From the NCBI GenBank assembly GCA_013378385.1, contig JACAFS010000012.1, positions 1 to 23,977 on the forward strand: DNA of 23,977 bases. The letters are read 5' to 3'. Positions 290 to 20,048 of the stretch are shown in pieces. Origin of the DNA: Nitrososphaerota archaeon. GTDB taxonomy: Archaea; Thermoproteota; Nitrososphaeria; Nitrososphaerales; UBA57. Position 1 is the stretch's first letter. Every line of letters begins with the position of its first letter. A program made the translations under genes and the position numbers. Under the pieces are notes generated by a model. The model worked only from the letters and a program-made list of their open reading frames with translations, searched no databases and was not told the origin of the DNA.

Positions 290-1777
290 TTAACTCCTAA
301 TCTTTTTAATAAAATCTATTGTTGATTCTCTAATAAATGAATCTATACTCAAAACAATTATAGTATAAACTAATACAGAAATGAATCCTGGAGGTATGAT
401 ATAAATAATTATTGACCCAACTGAAGTCCCTGTTAAAGGAATTAATTCTTGATAAACATATAAAAATCCTGCCATTATTATTCCTGAAAAACTATATCTT
501 AATATTGATAACTTAGGAAAGTCGAACTGCATTACGCGTTTTGCTAATAGTATTTTATATATTGTAAATGGAATTGTTATCAATAACAATGTTATTGCCC
601 AATACATACTAAGCATCAATTCATTTTCAACGCCTTTTGACGTATACATTATTACTCCCAATATTGAGAAATATCCTGCATATTTCATTAAATCAATTAA
701 CGGCAGCCTTACTAACCAACTATTTCTCAATCTCTTAAACTGTAGATTGTTTATATTTTCGTCAATTTTTTCCAAACCCGTTAATATATTCCACATGAAA
801 TACTCTATTCCTTCAATTACTGCCACTATTGTCAAAATTCTTAAAACAAGTTTTGCTTTTACATATTGTTCACCCAAAATTCCCAACAGTGGTTCTGCCA
901 ACATCAATGCTCCAACAGCAAGTGGAATTACGACAAAACTCTGTAGTCTAAATGTCAATGTAATATCTTCATTTCTATTATCACGAATTAATTTTGGATA
1001 TAAAACACGCAAAAATTCTTCACTATAACGAACTATTAATGTAAATACTCTACTTGCTTGAAATATTCCGACAACTGTGGTTGAACCAAGAATTATTGCT
1101 ACAAGTATTGAATCAGAAATCGATAATCTTGAAACCGACATGTTCGATATTGGTATCCATGCTGCTTTATACCATTTTTTTATAGTAGAACTCTTAAACG
1201 AACCTCTTAATTTCGGTCTTATTATGTAGATAACAATAGCTAATTGTAAAAATTGCCCTAACGCTAATGATAATATCGCACCAATTAAACCAAGTTTTAG
1301 AATTGCTATTGTATAATAAGCACCAGATACTTTTCCAATTTCTAAAGCAATCGTTGCATATCCTAGATATTCCGGTTTATATGATCTTGCAACTGGCTTA
1401 ACCACCTCCCAAATACATAAAGCTGGAATTTGTATACTGTAAATCAATACATAAATCAATATTGCTTCTATTGACGAAGAGGCTGTCAGTGCAAGTACTA
1501 AGTATGCTATGACAAAAATTGGCACTGCAATAATTCCTGCCAATAAAGAGGTTCTTGCTACGTCTTGGCCTCTGGCAGAATATCTTAATGTCCAATAATT
1601 TAAAGGGGCTAACGGTATCAGCAATAATCCTACTGAACTTCCTAATGTTTGCCATAAACCAAATTCATCAACAGGAAGATTTCTTGTTACTAATGTAATG
1701 AAAATTAGTCCTGTAATTAATGTAGCAAACCGCGCAATTAGCTGAATAATTCCTGCATAAGCTATTCTTAATGTCAA
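290..1777 (-). CDS. Polytopic membrane protein, Wzx/MOP-superfamily polysaccharide/oligosaccharide flippase-like
   Basis: 495 aa and hydrophobic throughout, with roughly 12-14 predicted helices. The N-terminus (IIQLIARFATLITGLIFITLVTRNLPVDEFGLW) is typical of polysaccharide biosynthesis/flippase proteins. A TTG start is required because there is no nearby in-frame ATG. Confidence 0.6.
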   Translation of the reverse strand: MTLRIAYAGIIQLIARFATLITGLIFITLVTRNLPVDEFGLWQTLGSSVGLLLIPLAPLNYWTLRYSARGQDVARTSLLAGIIAVPIFVIAYLVLALTASSSIEAILIYVLIYSIQIPALCIWEVVKPVARSYKPEYLGYATIALEIGKVSGAYYTIAILKLGLIGAILSLALGQFLQLAIVIYIIRPKLRGSFKSSTIKKWYKAAWIPISNMSVSRLSISDSILVAIILGSTTVVGIFQASRVFTLIVRYSEEFLRVLYPKLIRDNRNEDITLTFRLQSFVVIPLAVGALMLAEPLLGILGEQYVKAKLVLRILTIVAVIEGIEYFMWNILTGLEKIDENINNLQFKRLRNSWLVRLPLIDLMKYAGYFSILGVIMYTSKGVENELMLSMYWAITLLLITIPFTIYKILLAKRVMQFDFPKLSILRYSFSGIIMAGFLYVYQELIPLTGTSVGSIIIYIIPPGFISVLVYTIIVLSIDSFIRESTIDFIKKIRS

Positions 1778-1835: not shown

Positions 1836-2105
1836 CTATTTTTTCCATAATATTATTTTATACTGTCCTGAACCTGATTTCCATATTCCATATTCTGAAA
1901 CATCGTTACTTACCGATTGAGGCACTGCTTTAGTTGCCATTACATGATCTGTTTGTATAACAACAATCTTCCCAGAATCAATTTTTTTAATTTCTTCTCT
2001 TGCAATAATCTGCGGATAAGGACATACCTCTCCTTCCATGTCTATTATTATTGCACTTTGTTCAATCTCTTTCATATCTTCGTCATTCACTTTTCTTTCT
2101 TCCAT
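1836..2105 (-). CDS. TusA/SirA/YedF-like sulfur-carrier protein (CPxP motif)
   Basis: 89 aa with the EGEVCPYPQ motif (CPxP active-site cysteine) and TusA-like length and layout. It starts 16 nt after the YeeE/YedE stop and is preceded by an AGGTGA Shine-Dalgarno-like box. Confidence 0.8.
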   Translation of the reverse strand: MEERKVNDEDMKEIEQSAIIIDMEGEVCPYPQIIAREEIKKIDSGKIVVIQTDHVMATKAVPQSVSNDVSEYGIWKSGSGQYKIILWKK

Positions 2106-2121: not shown

Positions 2122-3219
2122 TCAAACTGCACAACCTGACCTTCTAAACATCCAGTGAGTAGCAACATATACTCCTAATAATAGACCTAGTGATGTTATA
2201 AAACCTGCTACGGACAAAAATGCTAACCCACTAAATGTATTACTGATGTTACAACCTGGCGCCATTCTTGAACCGAAACCCATAACCAATCCACCAATTA
2301 CTGCATTTGGAATTCTTGATCTCTTTATTACTCTTATCTTAAAATCTCCGCTTAAATACGCTGAGATGAAAGCTCCTAGAATTAAACTTACAAATAATAT
2401 CATATCTAAGCTAATTGAAAATATACCATCACGAAATACAACACTATTCCAATAAATATTATTTTGAAGAGTTTCTATACCAAATATCTCACTATAAACT
2501 AAACCTGTCCATTTTGCCTGAGGTCCTGTTACACTTAATGTTCCCCAAACTACAAACCACAATGTCGCTAATACTCCCATTCCAACACCAACTAATTTTG
2601 TATCCCATTCTGCTTTGAGACTCTCTGATGAAATATTAGATATTTTTAGACCTTGGATTGTTTGATTTATAACTAATTTGTTTTTACTTCGTAAATAAAC
2701 CACTGCCGCACTTATCAATAATACTGGGACAATCGGCGAGAATAATTCTAAACTCGAAATAACACTATAACCATCAAAAATTTGTAATGGAACAAAGAAA
2801 TATGGTAAAAAGACTTCTGGAAATAGTGCAGCAAATGCTATGTATCCCACACACGCTGAAATCAATAACAACCAATAATGTATGTATCCTTCTCCCGCAC
2901 GATATAATGTACCTGATGCACATCCTCCACCGTAGACCATTCCTATTCCAAATACAAATCCTCCTATTATGTTAGAAAGACCATAATTCGAAACCCAAAA
3001 ATTAGAACTAGAAACTCCTAACACATATGCTATACTTGTGCCAAGCATCATCGTTACAATTCCAATAATTACTCCATTTAGCACTCTTGTATCTTTGAAC
3101 GCAATAAAATCTCTTAATGCACTAGTAAAACAAAAGCGTCCTTTTTGTAGAAGTATTCCAAATCCCAGTCCAATGAGTAAAGTTGCACCTAATGATAAAA
3201 TATTATTGTATTCTAACAT
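2122..3219 (-). CDS. YeeE/YedE-family membrane transporter (thiosulfate / sulfur- or selenium-compound permease)
   Basis: 365 aa polytopic protein with the three family signature cysteine motifs: RFCFTSA (C30), GGGCASGTLYRAGEG (C100) and APGCNISN (C323). It has the two-repeat architecture. Confidence 0.85.
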   Translation of the reverse strand: MLEYNNILSLGATLLIGLGFGILLQKGRFCFTSALRDFIAFKDTRVLNGVIIGIVTMMLGTSIAYVLGVSSSNFWVSNYGLSNIIGGFVFGIGMVYGGGCASGTLYRAGEGYIHYWLLLISACVGYIAFAALFPEVFLPYFFVPLQIFDGYSVISSLELFSPIVPVLLISAAVVYLRSKNKLVINQTIQGLKISNISSESLKAEWDTKLVGVGMGVLATLWFVVWGTLSVTGPQAKWTGLVYSEIFGIETLQNNIYWNSVVFRDGIFSISLDMILFVSLILGAFISAYLSGDFKIRVIKRSRIPNAVIGGLVMGFGSRMAPGCNISNTFSGLAFLSVAGFITSLGLLLGVYVATHWMFRRSGCAV

Positions 3220-3222
3220 GCT

Positions 3223-4293
3223 CTAACCTCCACAATTGAAATTCGCACTAACAATTTTTGCATCATCTTTTGCCACATTTAATCCCGTATTACTATTCAT
3301 TATGTTGTAAAATTGCACATTGTGAGATCCATTTCCTGTTTCTATTGTTGCAATAATTTCAAACTTATTCAAATCAATTACAGATACAGTTGCATCGTTA
3401 CTATTACTGATATATCCATAGTTTCCATTGGGCTCAATATCGATATTATGAGGAAAATCTCCTGTTTGAAGCTCTTTAATTATTTCTCCCTTCATGTTTA
3501 TGATCAATACCTTATCTTCTTCAGGCAACGTGACAATAACGTTTTCCCCATCTGCAGTTAATGCTATTCCATGTGGATCTGATTCTAAGTTTATGCTATT
3601 CTTTACTTCTTCATTATCTATGAAGAAAAGCTTTGCAGGTCTTATTGCTCCAACAATAATTCTTTCATCTTTATCTGACACTATCATTAAAGGGTCTGCA
3701 TCGATCTTAATGTTATTTACTACCTCTAATTCTCTGAAATCTACAATGGATATTGATTGTGATTCTGTATTTGTAACTGCAACAGAATCTGATAATAATG
3801 CTACGTGATGCGGCTGTTCTTGCACTTCAATTCTTGATATTATTTTATCTGTTGTCGTATTAATCATTACCAAGGAATTCGAATCTCTACTTATTAAGAA
3901 AAATATATCTCCTTTGTCATCAAATATTCCTGCATGTTGAAGATTTGGACCAACTCTGACTCTTGATTGTATTTCTAATGATTGCGGATCTAATGTTAAC
4001 AATTCAGATTCACCATCATGAATAAGATATAATTTGTTATTCTTTTCATTATAATGTGCACCATATTGACCAGAATCGATTTCAATATTGATATTTGTTA
4101 AACTAATAAGAAGATAATTATCTATTACAGTTGCTGTTTTACCAATAGTATTGAATACCACTGCTTGATATTGTTCAATTTCTATATCATTATTCGAATG
4201 ATAAACAAACGTGCCACCAATCAAAAAACCTATTGTTAGCGCTGTTATTATTGCGCTAACTAATAGCAGATTCTGATTGTTTTGTTCTGACAA
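3223..4293 (-). CDS. Membrane-anchored YVTN-type beta-propeller repeat protein
   Basis: 356 aa with one N-terminal TM/signal anchor (LLLVSAIITALTIGFLIGGTFVY). Repeated ~40-residue units match the YVTN propeller pattern, e.g. PHNIDIEPNGNYGYISNSNDATVSVIDLNKFEIIATIETG. TTG start. Its stop lies 3 nt before the YeeE start. Confidence 0.7.
   Translation of the reverse strand: MSEQNNQNLLLVSAIITALTIGFLIGGTFVYHSNNDIEIEQYQAVVFNTIGKTATVIDNYLLISLTNINIEIDSGQYGAHYNEKNNKLYLIHDGESELLTLDPQSLEIQSRVRVGPNLQHAGIFDDKGDIFFLISRDSNSLVMINTTTDKIISRIEVQEQPHHVALLSDSVAVTNTESQSISIVDFRELEVVNNIKIDADPLMIVSDKDERIIVGAIRPAKLFFIDNEEVKNSINLESDPHGIALTADGENVIVTLPEEDKVLIINMKGEIIKELQTGDFPHNIDIEPNGNYGYISNSNDATVSVIDLNKFEIIATIETGNGSHNVQFYNIMNSNTGLNVAKDDAKIVSANFNCGG
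3226..3231 (-). promoter_or_regulatory. Shine-Dalgarno-like box (GGAGGT) for the YeeE/YedE gene, embedded in the last codons of the upstream gene
   Basis: The minus strand reads TGT GGA GGT TAG AGC ATG. GGAGGT lies 6 nt before the ATG and simultaneously encodes the C-terminal Gly-Gly of the propeller protein. Confidence 0.45.
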
Positions 4294-4302
4294 CTATTCC
4301 AC

Positions 4303-5496
4303 TTAGTAATTGTTTGTATTTATTGGAACAATTTTTGATGGCGAATAAGGTAATTTCAGACTGTCTACTTTCTTAAACGAGCCTACCTCGAACACATCAA
4401 CTGAACTGTCTCCTGGATTTGGTATATATGCAAGAGTACTGTCAGGACTAAATGCTGGATGTCCAGTATTTTCGATTTCTATCTTCGTGACTTCAGTCAA
4501 ACTTTCGACTTCATATACTATTGACGCTGGTCTAGTTCTAACTACACAGTATTTTCCATCTGGCGTAAACTCACTAGTACGTGGACCTGATTCTAATGGA
4601 AATTCTTTTACTATTTCCTTAGCCTGAATATCCCACACCATTTCAATTGGATCTAAATTCTTGAATCCACCTGCATTCGACCAATTTCCTGCTGAATTTA
4701 CTTCGATAAATGCAACATCATTGTTAGGCGAAATTGTTATCATGCTTGCACCATAGTCAGCGTAATCTACAGCTAAATGTTCTTCAATTGTAAATGTCTT
4801 TGTATCTACTACTGAAATCAAACTCTCTAATTGATTTACAAGCCACAATTTACCATCAGGTGCTATTGCAACGTCACAACAGAATTTTGGAACTGGTAAT
4901 ACATCGACTACTTCTCCCTTGAGAAGATCAATTTTATGAATTTCTCCTGGATCAATGTCATTATATGGAATTTCAAATTCATCTCTAGATGCATTGAACT
5001 TTTCTGAATCATATTTGTCTGCAATATATCCATTTAACATATATCCGTATTTTCCTTCTTCATCTGTTTCTCCTAATCTTATTCTCCATCTTCCTTCTAA
5101 TGGAACATCGTGAACTAATTCATTAGTAGTTGGATTTACTGCAATTGTAGAACCTATTTGACCAGGTTTTCTTACTAGTCCCCATACGTTTCCATTTGCA
5201 TCCGGATAATGGTTACACCAGTCTATACTTCCTGCTTCAGCGATCCAAGTTGGACCTGATGATGCTAAGACTTTTCCACGAGCTAAGTCAATTGTTGCAA
5301 TTGATCCTTCAGCACCAAAGACATAGCCTAAATGTCCTCTTCCTTTAAGTTCTTCTTTTACCTCATCGAGTTCACTTGTTACTGTGCCTACTTGAGAATT
5401 AGCAGACAGATAACCTGCTCCTCCAATTCCTAGACCGACAGCTGCTCCCCCGATATATTTGATAAAATCTCTTCGATTTACGTTTGTATCTGACAT
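4303..5496 (-). CDS. Tat-signal secreted beta-propeller protein (YVTN/lactonase-like repeats)
   Basis: The N-terminus MSDTNVNRRDFIKYIGGAAVGLGIGGAGYLSA carries a twin-arginine motif (RRxFIK) plus an h-region. It contains propeller-like repeats (IAPDGKLWLVNQLESLISVVDTKT, FTPDGKYCVVRT, FSPDSTLAYIPNPGDSSVDVFEV) and a vicinal Cys pair, C206-C207. Its stop lies 9 nt before the next gene. Confidence 0.65.
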   Translation of the reverse strand: MSDTNVNRRDFIKYIGGAAVGLGIGGAGYLSANSQVGTVTSELDEVKEELKGRGHLGYVFGAEGSIATIDLARGKVLASSGPTWIAEAGSIDWCNHYPDANGNVWGLVRKPGQIGSTIAVNPTTNELVHDVPLEGRWRIRLGETDEEGKYGYMLNGYIADKYDSEKFNASRDEFEIPYNDIDPGEIHKIDLLKGEVVDVLPVPKFCCDVAIAPDGKLWLVNQLESLISVVDTKTFTIEEHLAVDYADYGASMITISPNNDVAFIEVNSAGNWSNAGGFKNLDPIEMVWDIQAKEIVKEFPLESGPRTSEFTPDGKYCVVRTRPASIVYEVESLTEVTKIEIENTGHPAFSPDSTLAYIPNPGDSSVDVFEVGSFKKVDSLKLPYSPSKIVPINTNNY

Positions 5497-5564
5497 TTTA
5501 TATCGTTATTTTATAATGCCGTTATATTTATATACTTTTCGACGTCCGATTAATTGTTTCATAC
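5497..5564. promoter_or_regulatory. Divergent archaeal promoter region with two TATA-like boxes in a 16-nt-spaced imperfect direct repeat
   Basis: This 68-bp AT-rich spacer lies between the divergent ATGs at 5496 (-) and 5565 (+). It contains CGTTATTTTATAA (5504-5516) and CGTTATATTTATA (5520-5532). Which box serves which strand cannot be resolved from sequence. Confidence 0.4.
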
Positions 5565-6995
5565 ATGAGTACAAAACAGGAATTTTGGGACAATGTCTCC
5601 AAATATAGAGAAATGGGAATGGATCCACTTAGATGGGTGGCAGGATGTGCTGTCAAAGTAGATCTTGATACTGTCGTTTATCCTAGCTTGCACAATCTAA
5701 AACCTAGCCTTAAACAAATGGGAATCTCCTTAGGAGAGCGCGTTGACGCCGATATATTTCCATTAACTGAAAATGGTCCTGTAATAACTCGTAGAATCTA
5801 TAATCCTTCTAATCCTGAAATTGACCTTGACGATTTAAAAAAGATCAATCCAAAACGTGCAATCTCTTTGTTACAAGTCTTTCAGAAAAATGCCGAGAAG
5901 CAAGAAAAATTTCAAGCATTGTTAAACACTCTTTATACATCAATATCTAAATCTGACGTTCATTTTGCTGTTGGAAAAGGACATTCAATTATTACCGGTT
6001 TTCCAGACGCTGAATTTGCATTATTTGATTTTATTTCATATGAAGAAGGACGATCTGATGGATGGTGCCTCTCTAATAATGATACTATTCAAATTATTGA
6101 TCCAACCGCCGATCCATCTTCTGAACAACAAACTAATGTTGCTATATCTAACTCCTTAAACGATTTAATTTCCCTTGGCTGTTACGAAGAACTCAAAGTT
6201 TCTCCAGTTGTCGATGCGCCAAATGAAGAAATTCAAAATAATATCTCTAAAAATATGAAAACCTTTTCTAATAAATACGGTATGGAATTACTTCCTTCAG
6301 AATCACCACAACGTGGAAAGCTATTGATTGGCGCTACACTTTTTGGTACACTGAGAAAGGAACCTCCTACTAAACTCGATCTTCTAGATACTGGAATGCA
6401 AATCTTGGTTACTAGACCTTTCGGAGATTTAGCTCCAATCAATGTATTCCTATCATGTGTTGCCGACGAAACATTTCTTCAGGAATTGGAAAAAACTGGC
6501 TATTCCCTTAATGACGTCCAAAATGCTAAAGATTCTGTTATTAGTACTATGAATCAACCTAATCTGAAGGTTGCAGAGATCATCAACAAGTATTTGCCTG
6601 AATTTGGCAGTTCTTTTGACATTAACGAACATGTTCTAGCTACTGGTGATCTATCTGGTCCTGGTATTATGATATTCAAAGAACATGCTAATAATGCAGG
6701 TGTTGACATATCTCTTGATAATCTTCCTTTGCGTTATCCTGAATTCGTTAAATATGCTACTGAAAACTTTCTTATGGATAATGCTACTGCAGGCACTAAT
6801 GGAGCTGTAGCGGTAATAGCTTCTCCTAATATCATATCAAATATTAGCTCTGAACTTAAATCAACAGGTTACGATCCACATATTATTGGTACTATTCTAG
6901 GAAAAGGAAACGGAACTGTAAAAATCTCGAAAGACGTAAATGACATGATTGCGTCAGATATATTATTAAATCAGTTAACAATAGGAGATGAATGA
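5565..6995 (+). CDS. SelD-like protein (selenophosphate synthetase-like, PurM/AIR-synthase superfamily), enlarged, Cys-type
   Basis: 476 aa. Hand alignment to E. coli SelD gives four matches. AGCAVKVD aligns to GCGCKISP, placing Cys28 and Lys31 at the Cys17 and Lys20 positions. GERVDADIF aligns to ETRDDAAVY. NVAISNSLNDLISLG aligns to RIAATNAISDIFAMG. ILVTRPFGDL aligns to LFLTKPLGIG, and TGDLSGPGIMIF aligns to MTDVTGFGLLGH. The Cys codon is TGT at 5646-5648. Confidence 0.7.
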   Translation: MSTKQEFWDNVSKYREMGMDPLRWVAGCAVKVDLDTVVYPSLHNLKPSLKQMGISLGERVDADIFPLTENGPVITRRIYNPSNPEIDLDDLKKINPKRAISLLQVFQKNAEKQEKFQALLNTLYTSISKSDVHFAVGKGHSIITGFPDAEFALFDFISYEEGRSDGWCLSNNDTIQIIDPTADPSSEQQTNVAISNSLNDLISLGCYEELKVSPVVDAPNEEIQNNISKNMKTFSNKYGMELLPSESPQRGKLLIGATLFGTLRKEPPTKLDLLDTGMQILVTRPFGDLAPINVFLSCVADETFLQELEKTGYSLNDVQNAKDSVISTMNQPNLKVAEIINKYLPEFGSSFDINEHVLATGDLSGPGIMIFKEHANNAGVDISLDNLPLRYPEFVKYATENFLMDNATAGTNGAVAVIASPNIISNISSELKSTGYDPHIIGTILGKGNGTVKISKDVNDMIASDILLNQLTIGDE

Positions 6996-7237
6996 TTATG
7001 CAACAACAAAGTAAAAAACTCGATCTTGTCGGACAAGTATGTCCTTGGCCAGTGATTAACACTGTCAAAGAACTTAAAAAATTAGATGTTGGAGAAGTAT
7101 TAGAAGTTACAGTTGATCACTTACCTTCTACAATAAACATTCCTTCAGCTGTTAAAAAAGATGGACATGAAGTTCTTAGCTCAGAAGAGACTGATGAAGG
7201 CGTCTTCAAAATTTTCATAAAAAATAACAATAATTAA
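6992..7237 (+). CDS. TusA/SirA-like sulfur-carrier protein
   Basis: 81 aa with LDLVGQVCPWPV (CPxP). The ATG at 6992 overlaps the SelD-like stop (ATGA). An alternative ATG at 6998 sits 8 nt after a GGAGAT SD-like box (6984-6989). Confidence 0.8.
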   Translation: MIMQQQSKKLDLVGQVCPWPVINTVKELKKLDVGEVLEVTVDHLPSTINIPSAVKKDGHEVLSSEETDEGVFKIFIKNNNN

Positions 7238-7245
7238 TTGTTTAA

Positions 7246-7488
7246 TTGGTGAATCTCTTTTTGAAAATTGATCAATCACTTGATGTTAAAGGTCTTGTAT
7301 GCCCGATTCCTGTTCTCAAAACTAAACAATTTATTTCTAAAATGGAAAGTGGGCAAGTCCTGGAAATTTCAGCGACTGATCCTGCATCTAAAGAAGATAT
7401 TCCTGCATGGGCTAATCGTGTGGGTCATGAAATTATTGAAATTAAAGAAGAAGATAATCACTTTAAATTTATTTTGAGGAAAAAATAA
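7246..7488 (+). CDS. TusA/SirA-like sulfur-carrier protein (second tandem copy)
   Basis: LDVKGLVCPIPVLKT (CPxP) plus a conserved C-terminal half (ATDPASKEDIPAWANRVGHEIIE). There is no in-frame ATG before the motif. Candidate starts are TTG 7246, GTG 7249, or TTG 7261, which lies 8 nt after GGTGA at 7248-7252. Confidence 0.8.
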   Translation: MVNLFLKIDQSLDVKGLVCPIPVLKTKQFISKMESGQVLEISATDPASKEDIPAWANRVGHEIIEIKEEDNHFKFILRKK

Positions 7489-8291
7489 TGTCTATTTTAT
7501 TGGATTCTACGTGGCTGAAAGAAAATCTTGACGACTCTCACTTTGTAGTTCTTGATATTCGTTCTCCTCGTGAATACAATTCTGCTCATATTCCTAATTC
7601 TCGATTAGTTCCTTATGCTAAAATCTTGAGTTTCACTGATTCTACATCGTATTTTGATTTGGCTTCTAAAGAGCAAATAGAAGAATTATTGAGCATTCTT
7701 GGTATTAATAACGAATCCACACTTGTAATATGCGGTGATAGAGGTGGAGCTACTGCATCACGCTTATTTTGGTCACTTGCATACTATGGACTTTCAGTAC
7801 AATTTCTAGATATTAGTTTCTCTAAATGGATGTCATTAGGATATCCTGTAACTGATAAAATCGAAACAATTGAAAATTCAAACTTTGTTATTACTCAATC
7901 TCAACTTGACTTCAAAGTTGATCATGAATACGTACTATCTAAAATCAAAGATTCTAATTCTATATTGGTTGATACTCGCAGTCCTGAAGAATTTAATGGA
8001 ATTGTTGCAGCAGGACCTAAATCTGGTAGGATTCCAACCTCAAAAAACTTTCCCTGGGAAGTAGCAGTAGGAGACGATGGATATATATTTAAAAACATAG
8101 AACATCTAAATAGTCTCTTTGAAGAATCTGGAATTACTAAAGATAAAGAAATAATTTGTTATTGTCAAGTTGGAGAAAGAGCATCTCATACTTTTGTAGC
8201 ATTACAAATATGTGGATATAATAATGTTAAAATTTACGACCGATCATTTGCTGATTGGAGTACTAGAGACAATCTTCCTATTGAAAGTTAA
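7488..8291 (+). CDS. Tandem-domain rhodanese (thiosulfate/3-mercaptopyruvate sulfurtransferase family)
   Basis: 267 aa with two rhodanese domains. The C-terminal active-site loop is CQVGERAS (Cys226, TGT 8163-8165). The N-terminal domain loop CGDRGGAT also keeps a Cys (C82, TGC 7731-7733). TAATG overlap with the upstream gene, and a GAGGA box 7 nt upstream. Confidence 0.85.
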   Translation: MSILLDSTWLKENLDDSHFVVLDIRSPREYNSAHIPNSRLVPYAKILSFTDSTSYFDLASKEQIEELLSILGINNESTLVICGDRGGATASRLFWSLAYYGLSVQFLDISFSKWMSLGYPVTDKIETIENSNFVITQSQLDFKVDHEYVLSKIKDSNSILVDTRSPEEFNGIVAAGPKSGRIPTSKNFPWEVAVGDDGYIFKNIEHLNSLFEESGITKDKEIICYCQVGERASHTFVALQICGYNNVKIYDRSFADWSTRDNLPIES

Positions 8292-8296
8292 TCTAA

Positions 8297-8566
8297 TTAA
8301 AATTCATTTGTATTTGAACTAGAATTCATAACAGTTTTTGTAGATATATTTTTCTTGCCTGACGATGTCTTAGATTTTTTCTTTGCTGATACTGCTTTTT
8401 CTTTTTCTAATACAGCACTGAATAATACCACTGTATTTGAACGTGTTGAACCAATACTTACTGAACTACCATAATGAATTATCTCCCATCCATCTTCAGA
8501 TAATTTATTTAATTCTTCTTCAAATGCTTTTTTAGATTGCTCTGCAACAATTTTAAACTGTCTCAT
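8297..8566 (-). CDS. Small hypothetical protein with Lys/Ser-rich tail (possibly DUF4177-like)
   Basis: 89 aa. The N-terminal ~55 aa (KIVAEQSKKAFEEELNKLSEDGWEIIHYG) resemble small DUF4177-type domains, followed by a low-complexity K/S tail. A TATA-like ATTATAT lies upstream on the minus strand. Confidence 0.35.
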   Translation of the reverse strand: MRQFKIVAEQSKKAFEEELNKLSEDGWEIIHYGSSVSIGSTRSNTVVLFSAVLEKEKAVSAKKKSKTSSGKKNISTKTVMNSSSNTNEF

Positions 8567-15168: not shown

Positions 15169-17064
15169 CTAATTATCTAGTATTTCTGACCCTCCAGGCG
15201 GTAGCACTCGTAAATATTCATCAATTGATTTTCCTTTGTATATTTCGGATATATCATTATTTAATTTTGAAATAAGTTTGTTCTTAATCAATTTTGCAAT
15301 ATCTGAAGATTTTCCTTTACCTGGTTGTATTCTTACCCATGCTAAAGATTCTCTCGTTAATGCTTCTACAGGACCACTCATTATTGTATATTTGTCTTGA
15401 TATTTTACTGCTCCTACTGCAAGTTCCAGTTTTACATTTTTCAATATATTCTTTTTACCTTCAATCATAAAACTTCCTTTTGACATGGACATACCACTTG
15501 GTGCGCCTTTCTTTACTTGTTCATATTTTACATAATATACATTTACCGAAGTCTGTGTTTTCCATGCTCTGCTAAATGAAGCAGTAGCTGTTGCAATTTC
15601 AGCAATTGAACTTTCACTTATTCCATCTTTTATTATAAAAAACGGAGACCCCACTATGTCTGAATGAAAAACTAAATCATTTTGTTTTGCATATTTCTTT
15701 ATTATATTCACATTTGATTGTGCATCTCTTCCACCTATTACTAATATTTCCTCTGGCAATATGAACCATCTAAATTTCTCAAACCATAACATCTCTTCTT
15801 TTACTTTTATTGTGGACTTCATCTCTTCACGTTCATTCATCTTGTTTCTAATCTTTTCTAAATCTCCTTTTAGTTTATTTGACGCAATCTCAATTGCTTT
15901 TATCTTCTTTTCCATCTTTTTCGCATAATCAAAACATAAAGATGATAATTTTATAGGTGCAATATTCTCTTCTAACTCTTTTTCCGAATCAATGAATGGA
16001 ATTTTAATAACATTCTTTCTATATTTTATTATTTCGATGTTTTTCCCTTTAAATATCTCTATATAGCTGTTTGCTTTACTCAATTCTGTTGCTATATTTC
16101 TTAATTCTATAGCTTTATTCTTATTCTTGTTATAGGCTTCCTCTTGCAATTTAATTGATTTCTCTAACTCGGTTATTTTATTTTTTAATGGTTCCTGTTT
16201 GTTGGTAGTTTGAACTCTTGACAAATTCAATGTAATATAATTATCTAGTTCACTCATTAGCGATTCTGATTTATGATATGTCTTTTCTTTACTAATATCC
16301 AAATTCATCAAAGAAATATCATCAATCATTTCTCCATCTCTTGCAATCCATACACTCATATCATCAGATTTAATTATTTTAACTAATCCGATTATCTCTG
16401 TTTCTAGATTCTCTATTTCTTCGTCTGATAAAGTATTACACTTTCTCTCTTTTTCTATTTCTATTTTTTTAAGTATTTCTTCAATATATTTTTTTGATAT
16501 TGAATAATTTCTTCCAATCCATTTTGCTATTTCTAACTCTGTTTCATTGATATTTTTTAAATCATTTTTTTGAAAGTTCTCTATACTGGTTGCTTTTAAT
16601 GGCGGAAATTCATACACGCTGCCAGGAAATATTTCTCTATGCCGCACTTTTAATTTCTTTAAACATGATAAAATCTTATTATTTTCATCTACAACTATGA
16701 TGTTTCCTCCTCTAAAAAATTCACAAATTATCTTTCTCAGTCCTTTTTTAGTTTCAAAGTGAATGATGCATATTCTTTCTCCTGGAGGTTGTTCAAACTT
16801 GATTAATTTTGCTCTTAGCAAATTCTTTCTTAATGCGGTCACATAGCCAATAGATTCATCTTTATCTATGTCGTATTTTGAAGCCCATATTCCAATTTTT
16901 GGATTTACCATTACGTATTTCTTTGGTTTACCTACTTGATGCAACTTGAATAAATACGAATCATTCATCACTTGGTAAACATTATTCAAATAAATGCTGT
17001 CTGATTCTATTTCTTTATTCAACGCTGAAATTATCTTGAATATTTCAATAGACGATAATTCCAT
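15169..17064 (-). CDS. NFACT-family protein (FbpA N-terminal domain plus DUF814; Rqc2/RqcH homolog)
   Basis: About 631 aa with a long K/E-rich coiled-coil middle. The C-terminal GGRDAQSNVNIIKKYAKQNDLVFHSDIVGSPFFIIK matches the DUF814/NFACT-R signature. The ATG at 17064 is preferred over the upstream TTG at 17076. Confidence 0.8.
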   Translation of the reverse strand: MELSSIEIFKIISALNKEIESDSIYLNNVYQVMNDSYLFKLHQVGKPKKYVMVNPKIGIWASKYDIDKDESIGYVTALRKNLLRAKLIKFEQPPGERICIIHFETKKGLRKIICEFFRGGNIIVVDENNKILSCLKKLKVRHREIFPGSVYEFPPLKATSIENFQKNDLKNINETELEIAKWIGRNYSISKKYIEEILKKIEIEKERKCNTLSDEEIENLETEIIGLVKIIKSDDMSVWIARDGEMIDDISLMNLDISKEKTYHKSESLMSELDNYITLNLSRVQTTNKQEPLKNKITELEKSIKLQEEAYNKNKNKAIELRNIATELSKANSYIEIFKGKNIEIIKYRKNVIKIPFIDSEKELEENIAPIKLSSLCFDYAKKMEKKIKAIEIASNKLKGDLEKIRNKMNEREEMKSTIKVKEEMLWFEKFRWFILPEEILVIGGRDAQSNVNIIKKYAKQNDLVFHSDIVGSPFFIIKDGISESSIAEIATATASFSRAWKTQTSVNVYYVKYEQVKKGAPSGMSMSKGSFMIEGKKNILKNVKLELAVGAVKYQDKYTIMSGPVEALTRESLAWVRIQPGKGKSSDIAKLIKNKLISKLNNDISEIYKGKSIDEYLRVLPPGGSEILDN

Positions 17065-17133
17065 TTTAAATCCCAAATAACATTATTCATATAGTTTTAT
17101 ATCTTCTTGTATTTTTATATTAAATTGTTAATC

Positions 17134-17424
17134 ATGGCCGACTCTAAATTTATATTCAATACCATTTTTTGGCTAAGAGCCGCTTTCGGCATAATCTCTG
17201 GTTTCTCTGCTGGTTTACTAGGTTTCACATCTAATAATCCCAATGCTAATTTAGGCATATTATTTGGAATATCAATGTATCTTTTTACTTTGGCACTTGT
17301 ACGTCAGATGTTTTATTCGAAGATTAAAGAAGACGAACGTCGTAAGCTATTATATACTGGTGTGGGAAGCTTCATTGGCTTGTTCCTTTTCAGCTGGATC
17401 TTCTACAATACCTTCTTTATCTAA
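17134..17424 (+). CDS. Small two-to-three-TM membrane protein (possibly EMC6/Rab5ip-like)
   Basis: 96 aa from the ATG at 17134; the track's TTG at 17107 adds only a hydrophobic leader. The Gly/small-residue-rich TM pair (AAFGIISGFSAGLLGF ... GILFGISMYLFTLALV) is reminiscent of EMC6-type proteins. This call is weak. Confidence 0.45.
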   Translation: MADSKFIFNTIFWLRAAFGIISGFSAGLLGFTSNNPNANLGILFGISMYLFTLALVRQMFYSKIKEDERRKLLYTGVGSFIGLFLFSWIFYNTFFI

Positions 17425-17730
17425 TTTTTCTATTGCATTTTTTGTAAATACTTTCCATACTGAAAAATAGCCTTTCTCAAAATCATCAATCCAAACCGAA
17501 GATAACTTAGAATTAATACTTTTTTTCATCATCTTAAAATCGTCTATTGAATCATTCATATTCACATTCTTGGGTGAATATTTTGCTATGATTCCTTCAA
17601 GAGCAAAAACTGATCCAATAATCTTATTATTCGAAGAATTTTTCAAATGTTCAGCTATTATTGCTTTTGCCTTAGTAAAATCCTTTGCAATTATTTTCTC
17701 TACACATTCATTAATCGCTTCTTTTGCCAT
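17350..17730 (-). CDS. Hypothetical helical protein, translationally coupled to the RadA paralog
   Basis: 126 aa. Its ATG overlaps the upstream stop by 1 nt. I recognise no motif. Its last 25 codons overlap the convergent membrane-protein gene. Confidence 0.4.
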   Translation of the reverse strand: MAKEAINECVEKIIAKDFTKAKAIIAEHLKNSSNNKIIGSVFALEGIIAKYSPKNVNMNDSIDDFKMMKKSINSKLSSVWIDDFEKGYFSVWKVFTKNAIEKLDKEGIVEDPAEKEQANEASHTSI

Positions 17731-18521
17731 TACACTCTACCTATTCCATCTTCAGAAATATTAAAAATACATTGGTTTCCATCGTTATTTCTTGCTAACC
17801 ATAAGTTATCCATTCTTTTTAAACTCACTTTTAGATGTATTAATCTATTTATTAAGAAATCATATGTTTCTCTTTCTTTCATATTTGAATCATCTATTCT
17901 TGCCCGTACTGTGTTTGTTGTTATTATTGCAATATTCTTATTCCATGCTAAATCAGACAATTCTCTTACATATTCTATTAATATGTCCATCATTTCGTTC
18001 CTTAATTCAAATTGATGTTCAGTAAAATTTCTTGTTATGTCATCTATCATTACACATGTAATATTATTATTTTTAATAAACTGTTCAATCTTTGAAATTG
18101 TTTCTAATTGACTATCTAAAGAATTACATCTACTTGTATAGATGTTGTCTAAGATATTTTTTGATTCCTGTTTCTTTGCTTTGCTTAATTGAACAATTCT
18201 CTCAGGACGGAAGTTTCCTGACGAGTCAATGAAAAGAATTTTTTGGTTCTTAATTGATGTATTTACCGCAATTTGGAATAAAATTTGTGATTTCCCTGAC
18301 GAATTTGGCCCAAATAAATCTGTAATTGTTCCAGTTGGAAAACCATATGTGACTAAATCAAGTTCCCCTACACCAGTTTCATGTTTTGTTATTTTTCTAT
18401 TCTCTTCTTCCTCTAATAAATCGAATCCGCTAAATTTCCTTTCCATATAATTCTTATTTGTTCCTGTTATGAAATTATCAAATCTACTGAATTCATCTAT
18501 ATTGGTAAAATTGCCATCCAT
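17730..18521 (-). CDS. RecA-superfamily ATPase, RadA/Rad51 paralog (RadB-like)
   Basis: 263 aa with Walker A GPNSSGKSQ, the Rad51-family ILFIDSSGNFRPERIVQL motif and a Walker B-like VMIDDI. Confidence 0.7.
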   Translation of the reverse strand: MDGNFTNIDEFSRFDNFITGTNKNYMERKFSGFDLLEEEENRKITKHETGVGELDLVTYGFPTGTITDLFGPNSSGKSQILFQIAVNTSIKNQKILFIDSSGNFRPERIVQLSKAKKQESKNILDNIYTSRCNSLDSQLETISKIEQFIKNNNITCVMIDDITRNFTEHQFELRNEMMDILIEYVRELSDLAWNKNIAIITTNTVRARIDDSNMKERETYDFLINRLIHLKVSLKRMDNLWLARNNDGNQCIFNISEDGIGRV

Positions 18522-18865: not shown

Positions 18866-18953
18866 CATTTATTGACTTCTGTCTGCAATTCCTTGTATTC
18901 AATATCAATCCTTTTTAATACATGGATTGTTGATAAACTTCGGTAATTTCAAA

Positions 18954-20048
18954 ATGAATAATAACTTTACTTTTACTTCTGAATCAGTGTCTTCTGGACA
19001 TCCAGATAAAGTTGCTGATCAAATCAGTGACGCACTAGTTGACGCTGCTCTTTCTGCCGGTGATGAAACTACTCGATGTGGTATTGAAACTGCTAATACT
19101 ACTAATTATGTATTAGTGTTTGGAGAGACTAAAAATTTTCTCCCTACTTCTGAAGAAGTTGAATCTATTATTCGTAATAAAGTTCGCGAAATTGGCTATG
19201 AGCAAGATGGCTTTCACTGGAAACATCTGAACATTGATAACCGTTTACACAATCAATCTGCTGATATCGCATTAGGCACAGATGACTTTGGCGCAGGTGA
19301 TCAAGGTTTAATGTTTGGTTATGCATGTAAAGAAACTCCGTCTCTTCTTCCTGCACCTATACATTATTCACATGAAATTTTGAAACATTTACGATCTATT
19401 CGAGATAAAAATCTTGATATATTGGGTCCTGATTCAAAAAGCCAAGTGAGCATAGTTTATGAAAATAATATTCCTAAATTCATTGACAAGGTAGTAGTCT
19501 CAACTCAACATTCTGCTAATGAAAATAATTCTGCTAGAGAACTAGCTGAAACTGCAATTCATGAAGCTTGTGGGGAACTTATTGATAATAATACTGAATT
19601 TTTCATTAATCCAACAGGAAACTTTGTTATAGGTGGACCTGAAGGAGATTCTGGAATGACTGGACGAAAAATTATTGTAGATACATATGGAGGATATGCC
19701 CCGCATGGCGGTGGTGCATTTTCAGGTAAAGACCCTAGCAAGGTTGATCGATCCGCTGCGTATATGGCTCGGTGGCTTGCAAAGAATGTCGTTCTTAACA
19801 AGCTTGCAGATTGGTGCAGCGTCCAATTAAGTTATGCAATTGGTGTTAAAGAGCCCACTTCTCTCTATGTTGATTCTAATGGAGATAATCAATCGATTGC
19901 CTCTTTAATCCGTGATTCACAAGATCTTACACCTCTTGGCATAATTCGAAAATTTGATCTTTTCAACTTTACTGAATATTCAAAAAATTGTATATATGGA
20001 CATTTTGGAGATAAGAATGTACCATGGGAAAAAACTGAAAAATTCTAA
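18954..20048 (+). CDS. metK: S-adenosylmethionine synthetase, bacterial/eukaryotic-type MetK
   Basis: FTSESVSSGHPDKVADQISDA, GAGDQGLMFGYA, DSKSQV, GGGAFSGKDPSKVDRSAAYMAR. The ATG at 18954 is preferred over the track's TTG at 18927. Confidence 0.9.
   Translation: MNNNFTFTSESVSSGHPDKVADQISDALVDAALSAGDETTRCGIETANTTNYVLVFGETKNFLPTSEEVESIIRNKVREIGYEQDGFHWKHLNIDNRLHNQSADIALGTDDFGAGDQGLMFGYACKETPSLLPAPIHYSHEILKHLRSIRDKNLDILGPDSKSQVSIVYENNIPKFIDKVVVSTQHSANENNSARELAETAIHEACGELIDNNTEFFINPTGNFVIGGPEGDSGMTGRKIIVDTYGGYAPHGGGAFSGKDPSKVDRSAAYMARWLAKNVVLNKLADWCSVQLSYAIGVKEPTSLYVDSNGDNQSIASLIRDSQDLTPLGIIRKFDLFNFTEYSKNCIYGHFGDKNVPWEKTEKF

Follow-up and report, generated by a model that had tools for sequence, protein, structure and literature searches.

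The window, by which we mean the whole 23,977-nucleotide stretch of DNA analyzed here (contig JACAFS010000012.1 of the Nitrososphaerota assembly GCA_013378385.1), carries at 5565..6995 on the plus strand a gene for a SelD-like protein of 476 amino acids, which belongs to the NCBIfam family NF038049 and is predicted by AlphaFold2 (AF2) and Foldseek to adopt a PurM-superfamily fold. This gene leads a compact operon in which two TusA genes and a rhodanese gene follow, and the operon is divergent from a second one that encodes two beta-propeller proteins, a YeeE-type transporter, and a third TusA. The original prediction, made from the letters of this DNA, had described an enlarged SelD-like protein of the Cys type at this position. 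The open reading frame (ORF) call agrees with it, as the 476-residue frame starts at an ATG and the codon of Cys28, within the motif AGCAVK, reads TGT (5646-5648).

We have next to no doubt that the protein belongs to NF038049 (SelD_rel_HyperS, named "SelD-related putative sulfur metabolism protein"). This is the SelD-like family that Li et al. delineated by computational means in 2014 (BMC Genomics 15:908; PMC4210487). The window protein scored 547.4 bits against a family cutoff of 250, with its residues 6-472 matched to profile positions 2-464 of 465, which is the full length of the model. The model for genuine SelD (NF010705/PRK14105) gave 32.8 bits against a cutoff of 291 and matched residues 174-459 only, while the NCBIfam model for HypE gave 20 bits and the family profile reached the E. 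coli SelD sequence in the PDB at an E-value of 0.57. A Pfam scan of the protein returned no match, with the AIRS models staying below threshold. The archaeal group of SelD-like paralogs that the original prediction had mentioned but left unverified is thus the family to which this full-length NF038049 member belongs. Both a publication and a curated model of this family exist, and the enlargement characterizes the family as a whole rather than this gene in particular. Li et al. noted its conserved Cys, Lys, Asp, and Asn residues, its linkage to genes for SirA/TusA-like, DsrE-like ("Prx-like", COG2210), and rhodanese proteins, and its fusion to acylphosphatase, and they proposed that it synthesizes a thiophosphate compound; the insertion analyzed below goes unmentioned in their main text (PMC4210487).

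When we searched 5.8 billion clustered proteins, 217 relatives were retrieved, and several sources label relatives as "SelD-related putative sulfur metabolism protein". Those at 80-93% identity come from marine Nitrososphaerales and Thaumarchaeota metagenome-assembled genomes (MAGs), those at 50-63% from MAGs of other Thaumarchaeota, Halobacteria, Euryarchaeota, and Hydrothermarchaeales, and those at about 40% from Sulfolobales, Thermoproteales, Desulfurococcales, and Acidilobales, some of them with a fused acylphosphatase domain. An identical protein is encoded on 13 independent metagenome contigs, TARA Oceans contigs among them, so the gene is not an assembly or frameshift artefact. Like the rest of the family, the window protein is encoded near TusA (SirA-like) and rhodanese genes, is about 465-480 residues long with the inserted domain included, and carries the invariant Asp/Asn residues and Cys-x-x-Lys loop. 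On the other hand, it is only about 40% identical to Sulfolobales members, and its locus differs in lacking an adjoining acylphosphatase or DsrE gene and in having two TusA genes, a tandem rhodanese, and the divergent beta-propeller/YeeE/TusA operon.

The AF2 model built from the family alignment had a predicted local distance difference test score (pLDDT) of 92.6 and a predicted template modeling score (pTM) of 0.91. In a Foldseek comparison with the PDB, SPS1/SelD structures ranked first (E-values of 5e-16 to 1e-14 over about 310-335 aligned columns), followed by HypE (about 1e-12), ThiL (about 1e-11), and PurM (about 5e-10). A total of 110 PDB chains matched at E ≤ 1e-3, and the best 50 of these 110 were all SelD/SPS1, HypE, ThiL, or PurM, save one T. 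thermophilus protein. The ranking supports the SelD-like reading of the original prediction, and the modeled protein has a two-domain PurM-superfamily fold with SelD as its nearest relative. From the N terminus onward, it consists of a Cys/Lys loop, a first Asp strand, what looks like a degenerate N-domain copy nested at residues 68-165 (with an invariant GKGH), the core N-domain, and the C-domain. Its best structural match, SelD/SPS (selenide, water dikinase; PDB 3u0o, 2yye, and 3fd5), has the same two-domain PurM-type core, an N-terminal Cys/Sec-x-x-Lys loop, and residues D51, N87, D91, and D227 whose equivalents are collinear. However, identity to SelD is 13-19%, and the window protein falls far below the SelD model cutoff, has no Pfam AIRS match, has a second N-type domain of 98 residues set between its first two strands, holds its GGH-type motif in the inserted copy instead of the core, and sits in a sulfur rather than a selenium gene context. 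HypE, ThiL, and PurM have the fold in common with it at Foldseek E-values about 100- to 10,000-fold weaker than those of SelD, and HypE gave weak sequence matches as well, but these enzymes lack both the N-terminal Cys-x-x-Lys loop and the nested extra domain.

To place the catalytic residues, we used a family alignment (A1) of 36 sequences with identity down to 37% and an E. coli SelD query that is the same as chain A of 3u0o save four residues. A further large-scale protein search that started from E. coli SelD yielded nothing but enterobacterial SelDs (77-94% identity) and hardly improved the SelD profile. Invariant in A1 were G27, C28, A29, V30, K31, D33, R59, D61, and D63; G137, K138, G139, H140, N171, N172, D173, T174, D179, and P180; and N196, D200, D362, G365, P366, G367, N406, T408, G410, T411, N412, and G413. 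The G27-C28-A29-V30-K31 loop (5643..5657; this and the other motifs are on the plus strand) aligns with G16-C17-G18-C19-K20 of E. coli SelD and corresponds to its Cys17/Lys20 loop. The first Asp strand, R59-V-D61-A-D63 (5739..5753), corresponds to R49-D50-D51-A-A, while N196-x-x-x-D200 (6150..6164) aligns with N87/D91 and D362-L-S-G365-P366-G367 (6648..6665) with the C-domain Asp, D227, of TDVTGFG. The VDAD (60-63), N196/D200, and TGDLSGPG motifs picked out in the original prediction are therefore all present, with C28, K31, D61, D63, N196, D200, and D362 invariant. The prediction had set GCAVK apart as a replacement for the GCGCK loop of SelD; the motif is there, but it is not unusual among SelDs, since SSGCAAKV is the corresponding sequence in the PDB chain of Aquifex aeolicus SelD.

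Profile-profile comparison places this catalytic set on that of SelD. The whole family profile matched SelD with a probability of 96.4%, confidently from about residue 174 on, and paired N196 with N87, D200 with D91, and D362 with D227, in agreement with a hidden Markov model search against PDB sequences; the alignment that it forced through the insertion had zero confidence and was discarded. The N-terminal 70 residues alone were collinear with SelD 4-60 and paired C28 with C17, K31 with K20, and D61 with D51. When residues 68-165 were deleted, hhalign gave an end-to-end match to E. coli SelD 4-346 with a probability of 97.3% and a score of 86.3, compared to 76.5 for the undeleted profile, and all of these pairs, together with R59 and R49, fell into one alignment. 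These alignments bear out the claim that the SelD catalytic set, the Cys28/Lys31 loop included, has been retained. That claim had named no equivalent of D68, a position flanked by two invariant Asp residues. The segment N171-N172-D173-T174...D179-P180 (6075..6104) corresponds to the TTD68 region of SelD, where the partner of D68 is either D173 or D179; since strand 167-171 of the model stops just before D173, this residue is slightly favored. Elsewhere in the family, K31, GKGH, or NNDT is missing from a handful of highly divergent relatives (27-33% identity). Two of those in alignment A3 (30-33% identity) are P0262, which reads GCSVELD (K31 replaced by E) with IGRLH at the GKGH position, and P0264, with the sequence GCSNEID, no GKGH, and ATSTVT instead of NNDT; from their sequences, these two are possibly inactive or re-purposed offshoots.

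The extra block relative to SelD, which the original prediction had put at 90-100 residues around positions 65-165 after the first Asp motif, comprises about 98 residues (68-165; 5766..6059), and the end-to-end SelD match obtained by deleting it bears out both size and place. A deletion scan put the best placement at about 72-183, with a shallow optimum. The block is present in every aligned family member and is conserved almost as well as the core: its mean majority-residue frequency is 0.52, compared to 0.57-0.60 for other regions, and it holds five invariant positions. In the model, its secondary structure (beta-alpha-beta-alpha-beta-beta), taken with the preceding Asp strand, follows the order of elements of a PurM-type N-domain. 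Modeled alone, residues 64-172 gave a pLDDT of 91.7 and a pTM of 0.83, and a Foldseek comparison of this model with 350,542 PDB chains returned SelD, HypE, ThiL, or PurM for all of the best 24 matches, led by Aquifex SelD (E = 4.9e-4), with about 100-110 aligned columns covering the whole query. In a profile of residues 58-166, the region was collinear with E. coli SelD 48-170, pairing REDADIF with TRDDAAVY and VGKGHSI with LAGGHSI, so that the invariant G137-K138-G139-H140 (5973..5984) falls on the G-G-H of SelD. The core N-domain (166-265) keeps the equivalents of the D68 region, N87, and D91 and has LLPSES where SelD has AGGHS. Within the block, the original prediction had marked a K/Q-rich helical stretch, but in the model the long helix is confined to residues 113-128, and LLQVF lies within beta-strand 98-106. 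Its alternative of FPDAEFALFDF as the DDAAV equivalent was rejected, as model and alignments make this segment the last strand of the inserted domain.

Judging from its fold and its collinearity with SelD, the insertion seems to have arisen by duplication of the N-domain, with the new copy nested inside the old one and each copy then losing motifs that the other keeps. PurM-family enzymes form homodimers, and the duplicated N-type domain probably takes the place of the partner subunit's N-domain and supplies the GKGH that the core has lost. PurL (FGAM synthetase) offers a precedent, as a single chain there contains duplicated PurM-type domains that pair into a pseudo-dimer with a degenerate half; PurL duplicates the whole N-plus-C unit in tandem, whereas the window protein has duplicated the N-type domain only and nests it in the N-domain hairpin. 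When 1.84 billion representative proteins were scanned with the insertion profile by HMMER, 31 proteins matched at E ≤ 1e-3, most of them 450-490 residues long with the block at the matching position, or fragments; an exception was a weak match (E = 3.8e-4) in a 1243-residue protein. At the sequence level, this outcome indicates that the block is essentially confined to this small family.

Downstream of the SelD-like gene on the plus strand lie two TusA-family sulfur carriers, the first with a CPWP motif (6992..7237; Pfam TusA, E = 3e-21) and a start that overlaps the SelD-like stop (ATGA), and the second with CPIP (7246..7488; E = 1e-25). The start of the next gene, which encodes a tandem-domain rhodanese sulfurtransferase with the loop CQVGER (7488..8291; Pfam Rhodanese in two stretches, E = 1.5e-31), overlaps the stop of the second TusA gene (TAATG). 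Upstream, an AT-rich intergenic region of 68 bp (5497..5564), presumed to contain the promoters, separates the SelD-like gene from the minus-strand operon. This operon encodes two beta-propeller proteins of the YncE/YVTN type, both assigned by family scans, the first with a twin-arginine signal (4303..5496) and the second at 3223..4293, a YeeE/YedE-family (Sulf_transp) membrane transporter with the Cys motifs GRFCF, GGGCASG, and APGCN (2122..3219; Pfam PF04143, E = 7e-55), and, paired with the transporter, a third TusA-family protein with CPYP (1836..2105; E = 1.2e-9). The CPxP cysteine is intact in each of the three TusA proteins, as is the active-site Cys of the rhodanese. In having a Sulf_transp transporter with three Cys motifs and a small TusA-fold partner, the locus resembles both the YeeE/YeeD (TsuA/TsuB) thiosulfate uptake system and SelD-YedE-YedF clusters, but the window pair stays below all curated subfamily cutoffs, with the transporter falling short of every one in NCBIfam.

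Among the other features of the window, an 89-residue ORF beside the rhodanese gene (8297-8566, minus strand) has a Lys/Ser-rich tail and sub-threshold family matches, and its position is conserved in related marine contigs (L001-L003); as a candidate acylphosphatase, it was rejected. Downstream of the YeeE-TusA pair and on one strand with it, a 495-residue polytopic membrane protein (290-1777, minus strand) has no Pfam or NCBIfam match; our guess from its sequence is that it is flippase-like, and nothing that we found connects it with the sulfur module. Scans of the window for tRNA genes and Rfam families found nothing. Genes for an NFACT-family protein (635 residues) and a RadA/Rad51-like paralogue (263 residues) lie close together at 15169-18521 on the minus strand and are unrelated to the sulfur cluster. 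At 18927-20048 on the plus strand, this archaeal contig encodes an S-adenosylmethionine synthetase of the bacterial/eukaryotic type (Pfam S-AdoMet_synt N, M, and C domains). Archaea usually carry another type of this enzyme, and the gene may be a horizontal acquisition.

Across relatives, we counted the neighbors of the SelD-like gene at 80 loci from species-representative genomes, several of which end at contig ends, so that the counts are lower bounds. A TusA gene lay within 300 bp at 58 of the 80 loci and an acylphosphatase gene was adjacent at 37, while genes within 3 kb encoded a YeeE-type transporter (31), a rhodanese (27), a beta-propeller (10), DsrE (5), or sulfite reductase (2); 6 loci had none of these neighbors. 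The order YeeE, TusA, SelD-like, acylphosphatase is common in many Desulfurococcales, Pyrodictiaceae, and Acidilobaceae MAGs, and in Vulcanisaeta the acylphosphatase is fused to the SelD-like protein. Related marine MAGs share the divergent beta-propeller arrangement of the window, and one bacterial Acetothermia MAG has next to its SelD-like gene the neighbors known from the window, namely beta-propeller, rhodanese, YeeE, and TusA genes. At another locus (L089, 1-6400), an operon of SelD-like, TusA, rhodanese, and free-standing acylphosphatase genes and a complete sulfur-oxidation cluster (sHdr-LbpA-DsrE-LplA) run in divergent directions. Thaumarchaeota from lakes and groundwater (L004, 9720-11618; L013 and L015) have the SelD-like gene directly beside a gene for a 632-residue NIR_SIR sulfite reductase, with TusA genes on both sides and a rhodanese gene; no YeeE was detected within the flanks covered. 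Together, these counts and contexts in several lineages establish a link to cytoplasmic sulfur-carrier proteins that is robust across phyla. As a separate observation, a beta-propeller similar to those of the window lies beside SelD-like, rhodanese, YeeE, and TusA genes in bacterial Acetothermia/Bipolaricaulota MAGs (L088, 8850-10040), and the pairing of an exported propeller with a putative sulfur importer extends over both archaea and bacteria.

Taking the fold, the residues, and the gene context as a whole, we consider the best explanation to be that the SelD-like protein, with its nested N-domain copy, acts in ATP-dependent, TusA-linked sulfur handling and yields thiophosphate or a related product, a reading to which we give about even chances. 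Of its parts, a role in TusA-linked sulfur trafficking is quite likely, while thiophosphate as the product, which is proposed by analogy, is possible but doubtful. In the proposed mechanism, the YeeE-type transporter would import a reduced sulfur compound, such as thiosulfate, and the sulfur would be carried as persulfide or thiosulfonate on the cysteines of TusA and rhodanese before passing to Cys28 in the mobile loop near the N terminus. The enzyme would phosphorylate it at the expense of Mg-ATP, for which D61, D173 or D179, N196, D200, and D362 would be the ligands, and would, in analogy to the selenophosphate made by SelD, form thiophosphate or a similar phospho-sulfur species. In other lineages, the adjacent or fused acylphosphatase might process a phospho-intermediate or the product. 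The most far-reaching form of this idea is a long shot: the eight-gene cluster (YeeE-type importer, three TusA proteins, rhodanese, two exported beta-propellers, and the SelD-like protein) would serve as a reduced-sulfur route in which the SelD-like enzyme, as a monomeric pseudo-dimer, supplies biosynthesis with thiophosphate, an activated sulfur donor not known before.

An unlikely alternative to thiophosphate synthesis is that the protein works more like HypE, using ATP to activate a protein-bound or small-molecule sulfur species, such as a group on its own or a TusA cysteine, or to form an acyl- or thio-phosphate intermediate that acylphosphatase hydrolyzes to drive sulfur release or transfer, with no free thiophosphate being made. 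HypE is the next-best relative in both structure and sequence, and the adjacency of acylphosphatase at 37 of the 80 loci, together with its fusion in Thermoproteales, fits such a partnership. HypF, which has an acylphosphatase domain and works with HypE, offers a parallel. Model 1 of Li et al. is of a similar type (PMC4210487). However, the Cys-x-x-Lys loop and the Asp/Asn set are specific to SelD and not HypE-like, HypE uses a C-terminal Cys of which the 36-sequence alignment has no conserved counterpart, and the marine operon lacks an acylphosphatase.

The original prediction had suggested that the insertion could be a docking surface for TusA or rhodanese; that docking is its main task, instead of a catalytic or pseudo-dimer function, we regard as distinctly improbable. 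Among the neighbors, TusA recurs most often (58 of the 80 loci), and the insertion follows directly after the segment that bears the Cys loop, both of which would suit docking. The insertion has the fold of the family's own N-domain, however, and its invariant GKGH aligns with the motif lost by the core, a pattern typical of complementary degeneration after duplication. The PurM-type fold and the invariant GKGH thus point more to a structural or catalytic pseudo-dimer role than to docking.

It is very unlikely that the protein is instead a divergent selenophosphate synthetase serving an unrecognized selenium-use trait, with the YeeE/YedE-like transporter and the TusA/YedF-like proteins delivering selenium in the way suggested for SelD-YedE-YedF clusters of bacteria. 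In its favor, the catalytic residues of SelD appear to be kept in full, the best matches of the neighboring transporter and of the first TusA, though sub-threshold, are the selenium-linked YedE/FdhT and YedF models, and Li et al. did not fully exclude a selenium role (PMC4210487). On the other hand, the protein scores 32.8 bits on a SelD model with a cutoff of 291 and forms a separate family with an extra domain, Crenarchaeota that carry the family lack every known selenium trait (PMC4210487), and the neighbors in other lineages are specific to sulfur (sHdr-LbpA, DsrE, and sulfite reductase). Within the window, we found no SelA, SelB, tRNA-Sec, MnmH/YbbB, or YqeB/YqeC, nor any other selenium gene. 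Finally, a misassembled or frameshifted extra block, or an inactive relic, is vanishingly improbable: we found nothing in its favor beyond the existence elsewhere in the family of the divergent, apparently inactive offshoots, the 13 independent contigs and the conservation of the block in every aligned member rule out an artefact, and all catalytic positions are intact in the window copy.

Several points weigh against the preferred reading of ATP-dependent, TusA-linked sulfur handling by a pseudo-dimeric SelD-like enzyme. The N-terminal alignment (P = 0.04) and the insertion alignment (P = 0.03) are individually weak, and in the hhalign alignment D68 lands on Q176, with the invariant D173 and D179 three residues to either side. 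A profile-to-profile comparison of the inserted domain with the core N-domain gave no significant similarity (P = 0.24), so the duplication rests on fold and on collinearity with SelD. Where the insertion would lie with respect to the active site, and whether it would form a pseudo-dimer with the core, are matters of inference. The sub-cutoff preference of the neighboring transporter and first TusA for selenium-linked models counts here as well, as does the marine operon, in which there is no acylphosphatase and the adjoining 89-residue ORF is not one. We know of no established biological role for thiophosphate. In the literature, including reviews to May 2026, no biochemistry is reported for any family member; the May 2026 review still calls the family's role in sulfur metabolism "speculated", and a 2022 review treats its function as likewise speculative. 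We also found no mention of SelD in the sHdr, TusA, and DsrE sulfur-trafficking literature that we searched.

The window has a GC content of 32% and is collinear with several marine MAG contigs at 86-92% nucleotide identity, including a contig labelled Nitrosopumilales (92% over 6.9 kb) and contig ATL_8 of "Thaumarchaeota archaeon isolate ATL" (90% over 8.8 kb), which we take to be HMT_ATL, one of the heterotrophic marine Thaumarchaea MAGs of Aylward and Santoro (2020). These organisms form a pSL12-related group with genomes of about 0.8-1 Mb (PMC7300363) and are described in a 2026 study as lacking sulfite reductase and deficient in sulfur metabolism (PMC13374868); the words TusA, rhodanese, thiosulfate, and selenophosphate are absent from the main texts of both papers. 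The host is thus a heterotrophic marine Thaumarchaeon, mesophilic, aerobic, and small in genome, rather than a hyperthermophilic sulfur-reducing Crenarchaeon, and it stands outside the range described in the family name and the 2014 account but not outside the molecular definition of the family. Li et al. reported the family as absent from Desulfurococcales and from bacteria (PMC4210487), whereas we found it in many Desulfurococcales MAGs, in Bipolaricaulota/Acetothermia and Fraserbacteria, and in one Acidobacteriota-labelled MAG, as well as in mesophilic marine and groundwater Thaumarchaeota and in Halobacteria and Hydrothermarchaeales MAGs. The range of the family is therefore much wider than "hyperthermophilic sulfur-reducing archaea". 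A GTDB locus labelled Acidobacteriota (L017), which is near-identical to L089, encodes a protein that nevertheless groups with Thaumarchaeota sequences and is 57% identical to the window protein.

What is new here is modest: the insertion is read as a duplicated domain, the known range of the family is widened, and a possible role in sulfur acquisition is put forward for streamlined deep-ocean Thaumarchaea. The nested N-domain copy with its invariant GKGH gives clear targets for mutagenesis and predicts a monomer, and the recurrent module of YeeE, TusA, and SelD-like genes with acylphosphatase or rhodanese defines the likely partners. If thiophosphate synthesis were true, it would add a new activated-sulfur metabolite parallel to selenophosphate. 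In streamlined marine archaea that are reported to lack sulfite reductase, the cluster may be a route for acquiring reduced sulfur, which makes it a candidate sulfur-acquisition pathway for the deep-ocean heterotrophic Thaumarchaea that have been described as deficient in sulfur metabolism.

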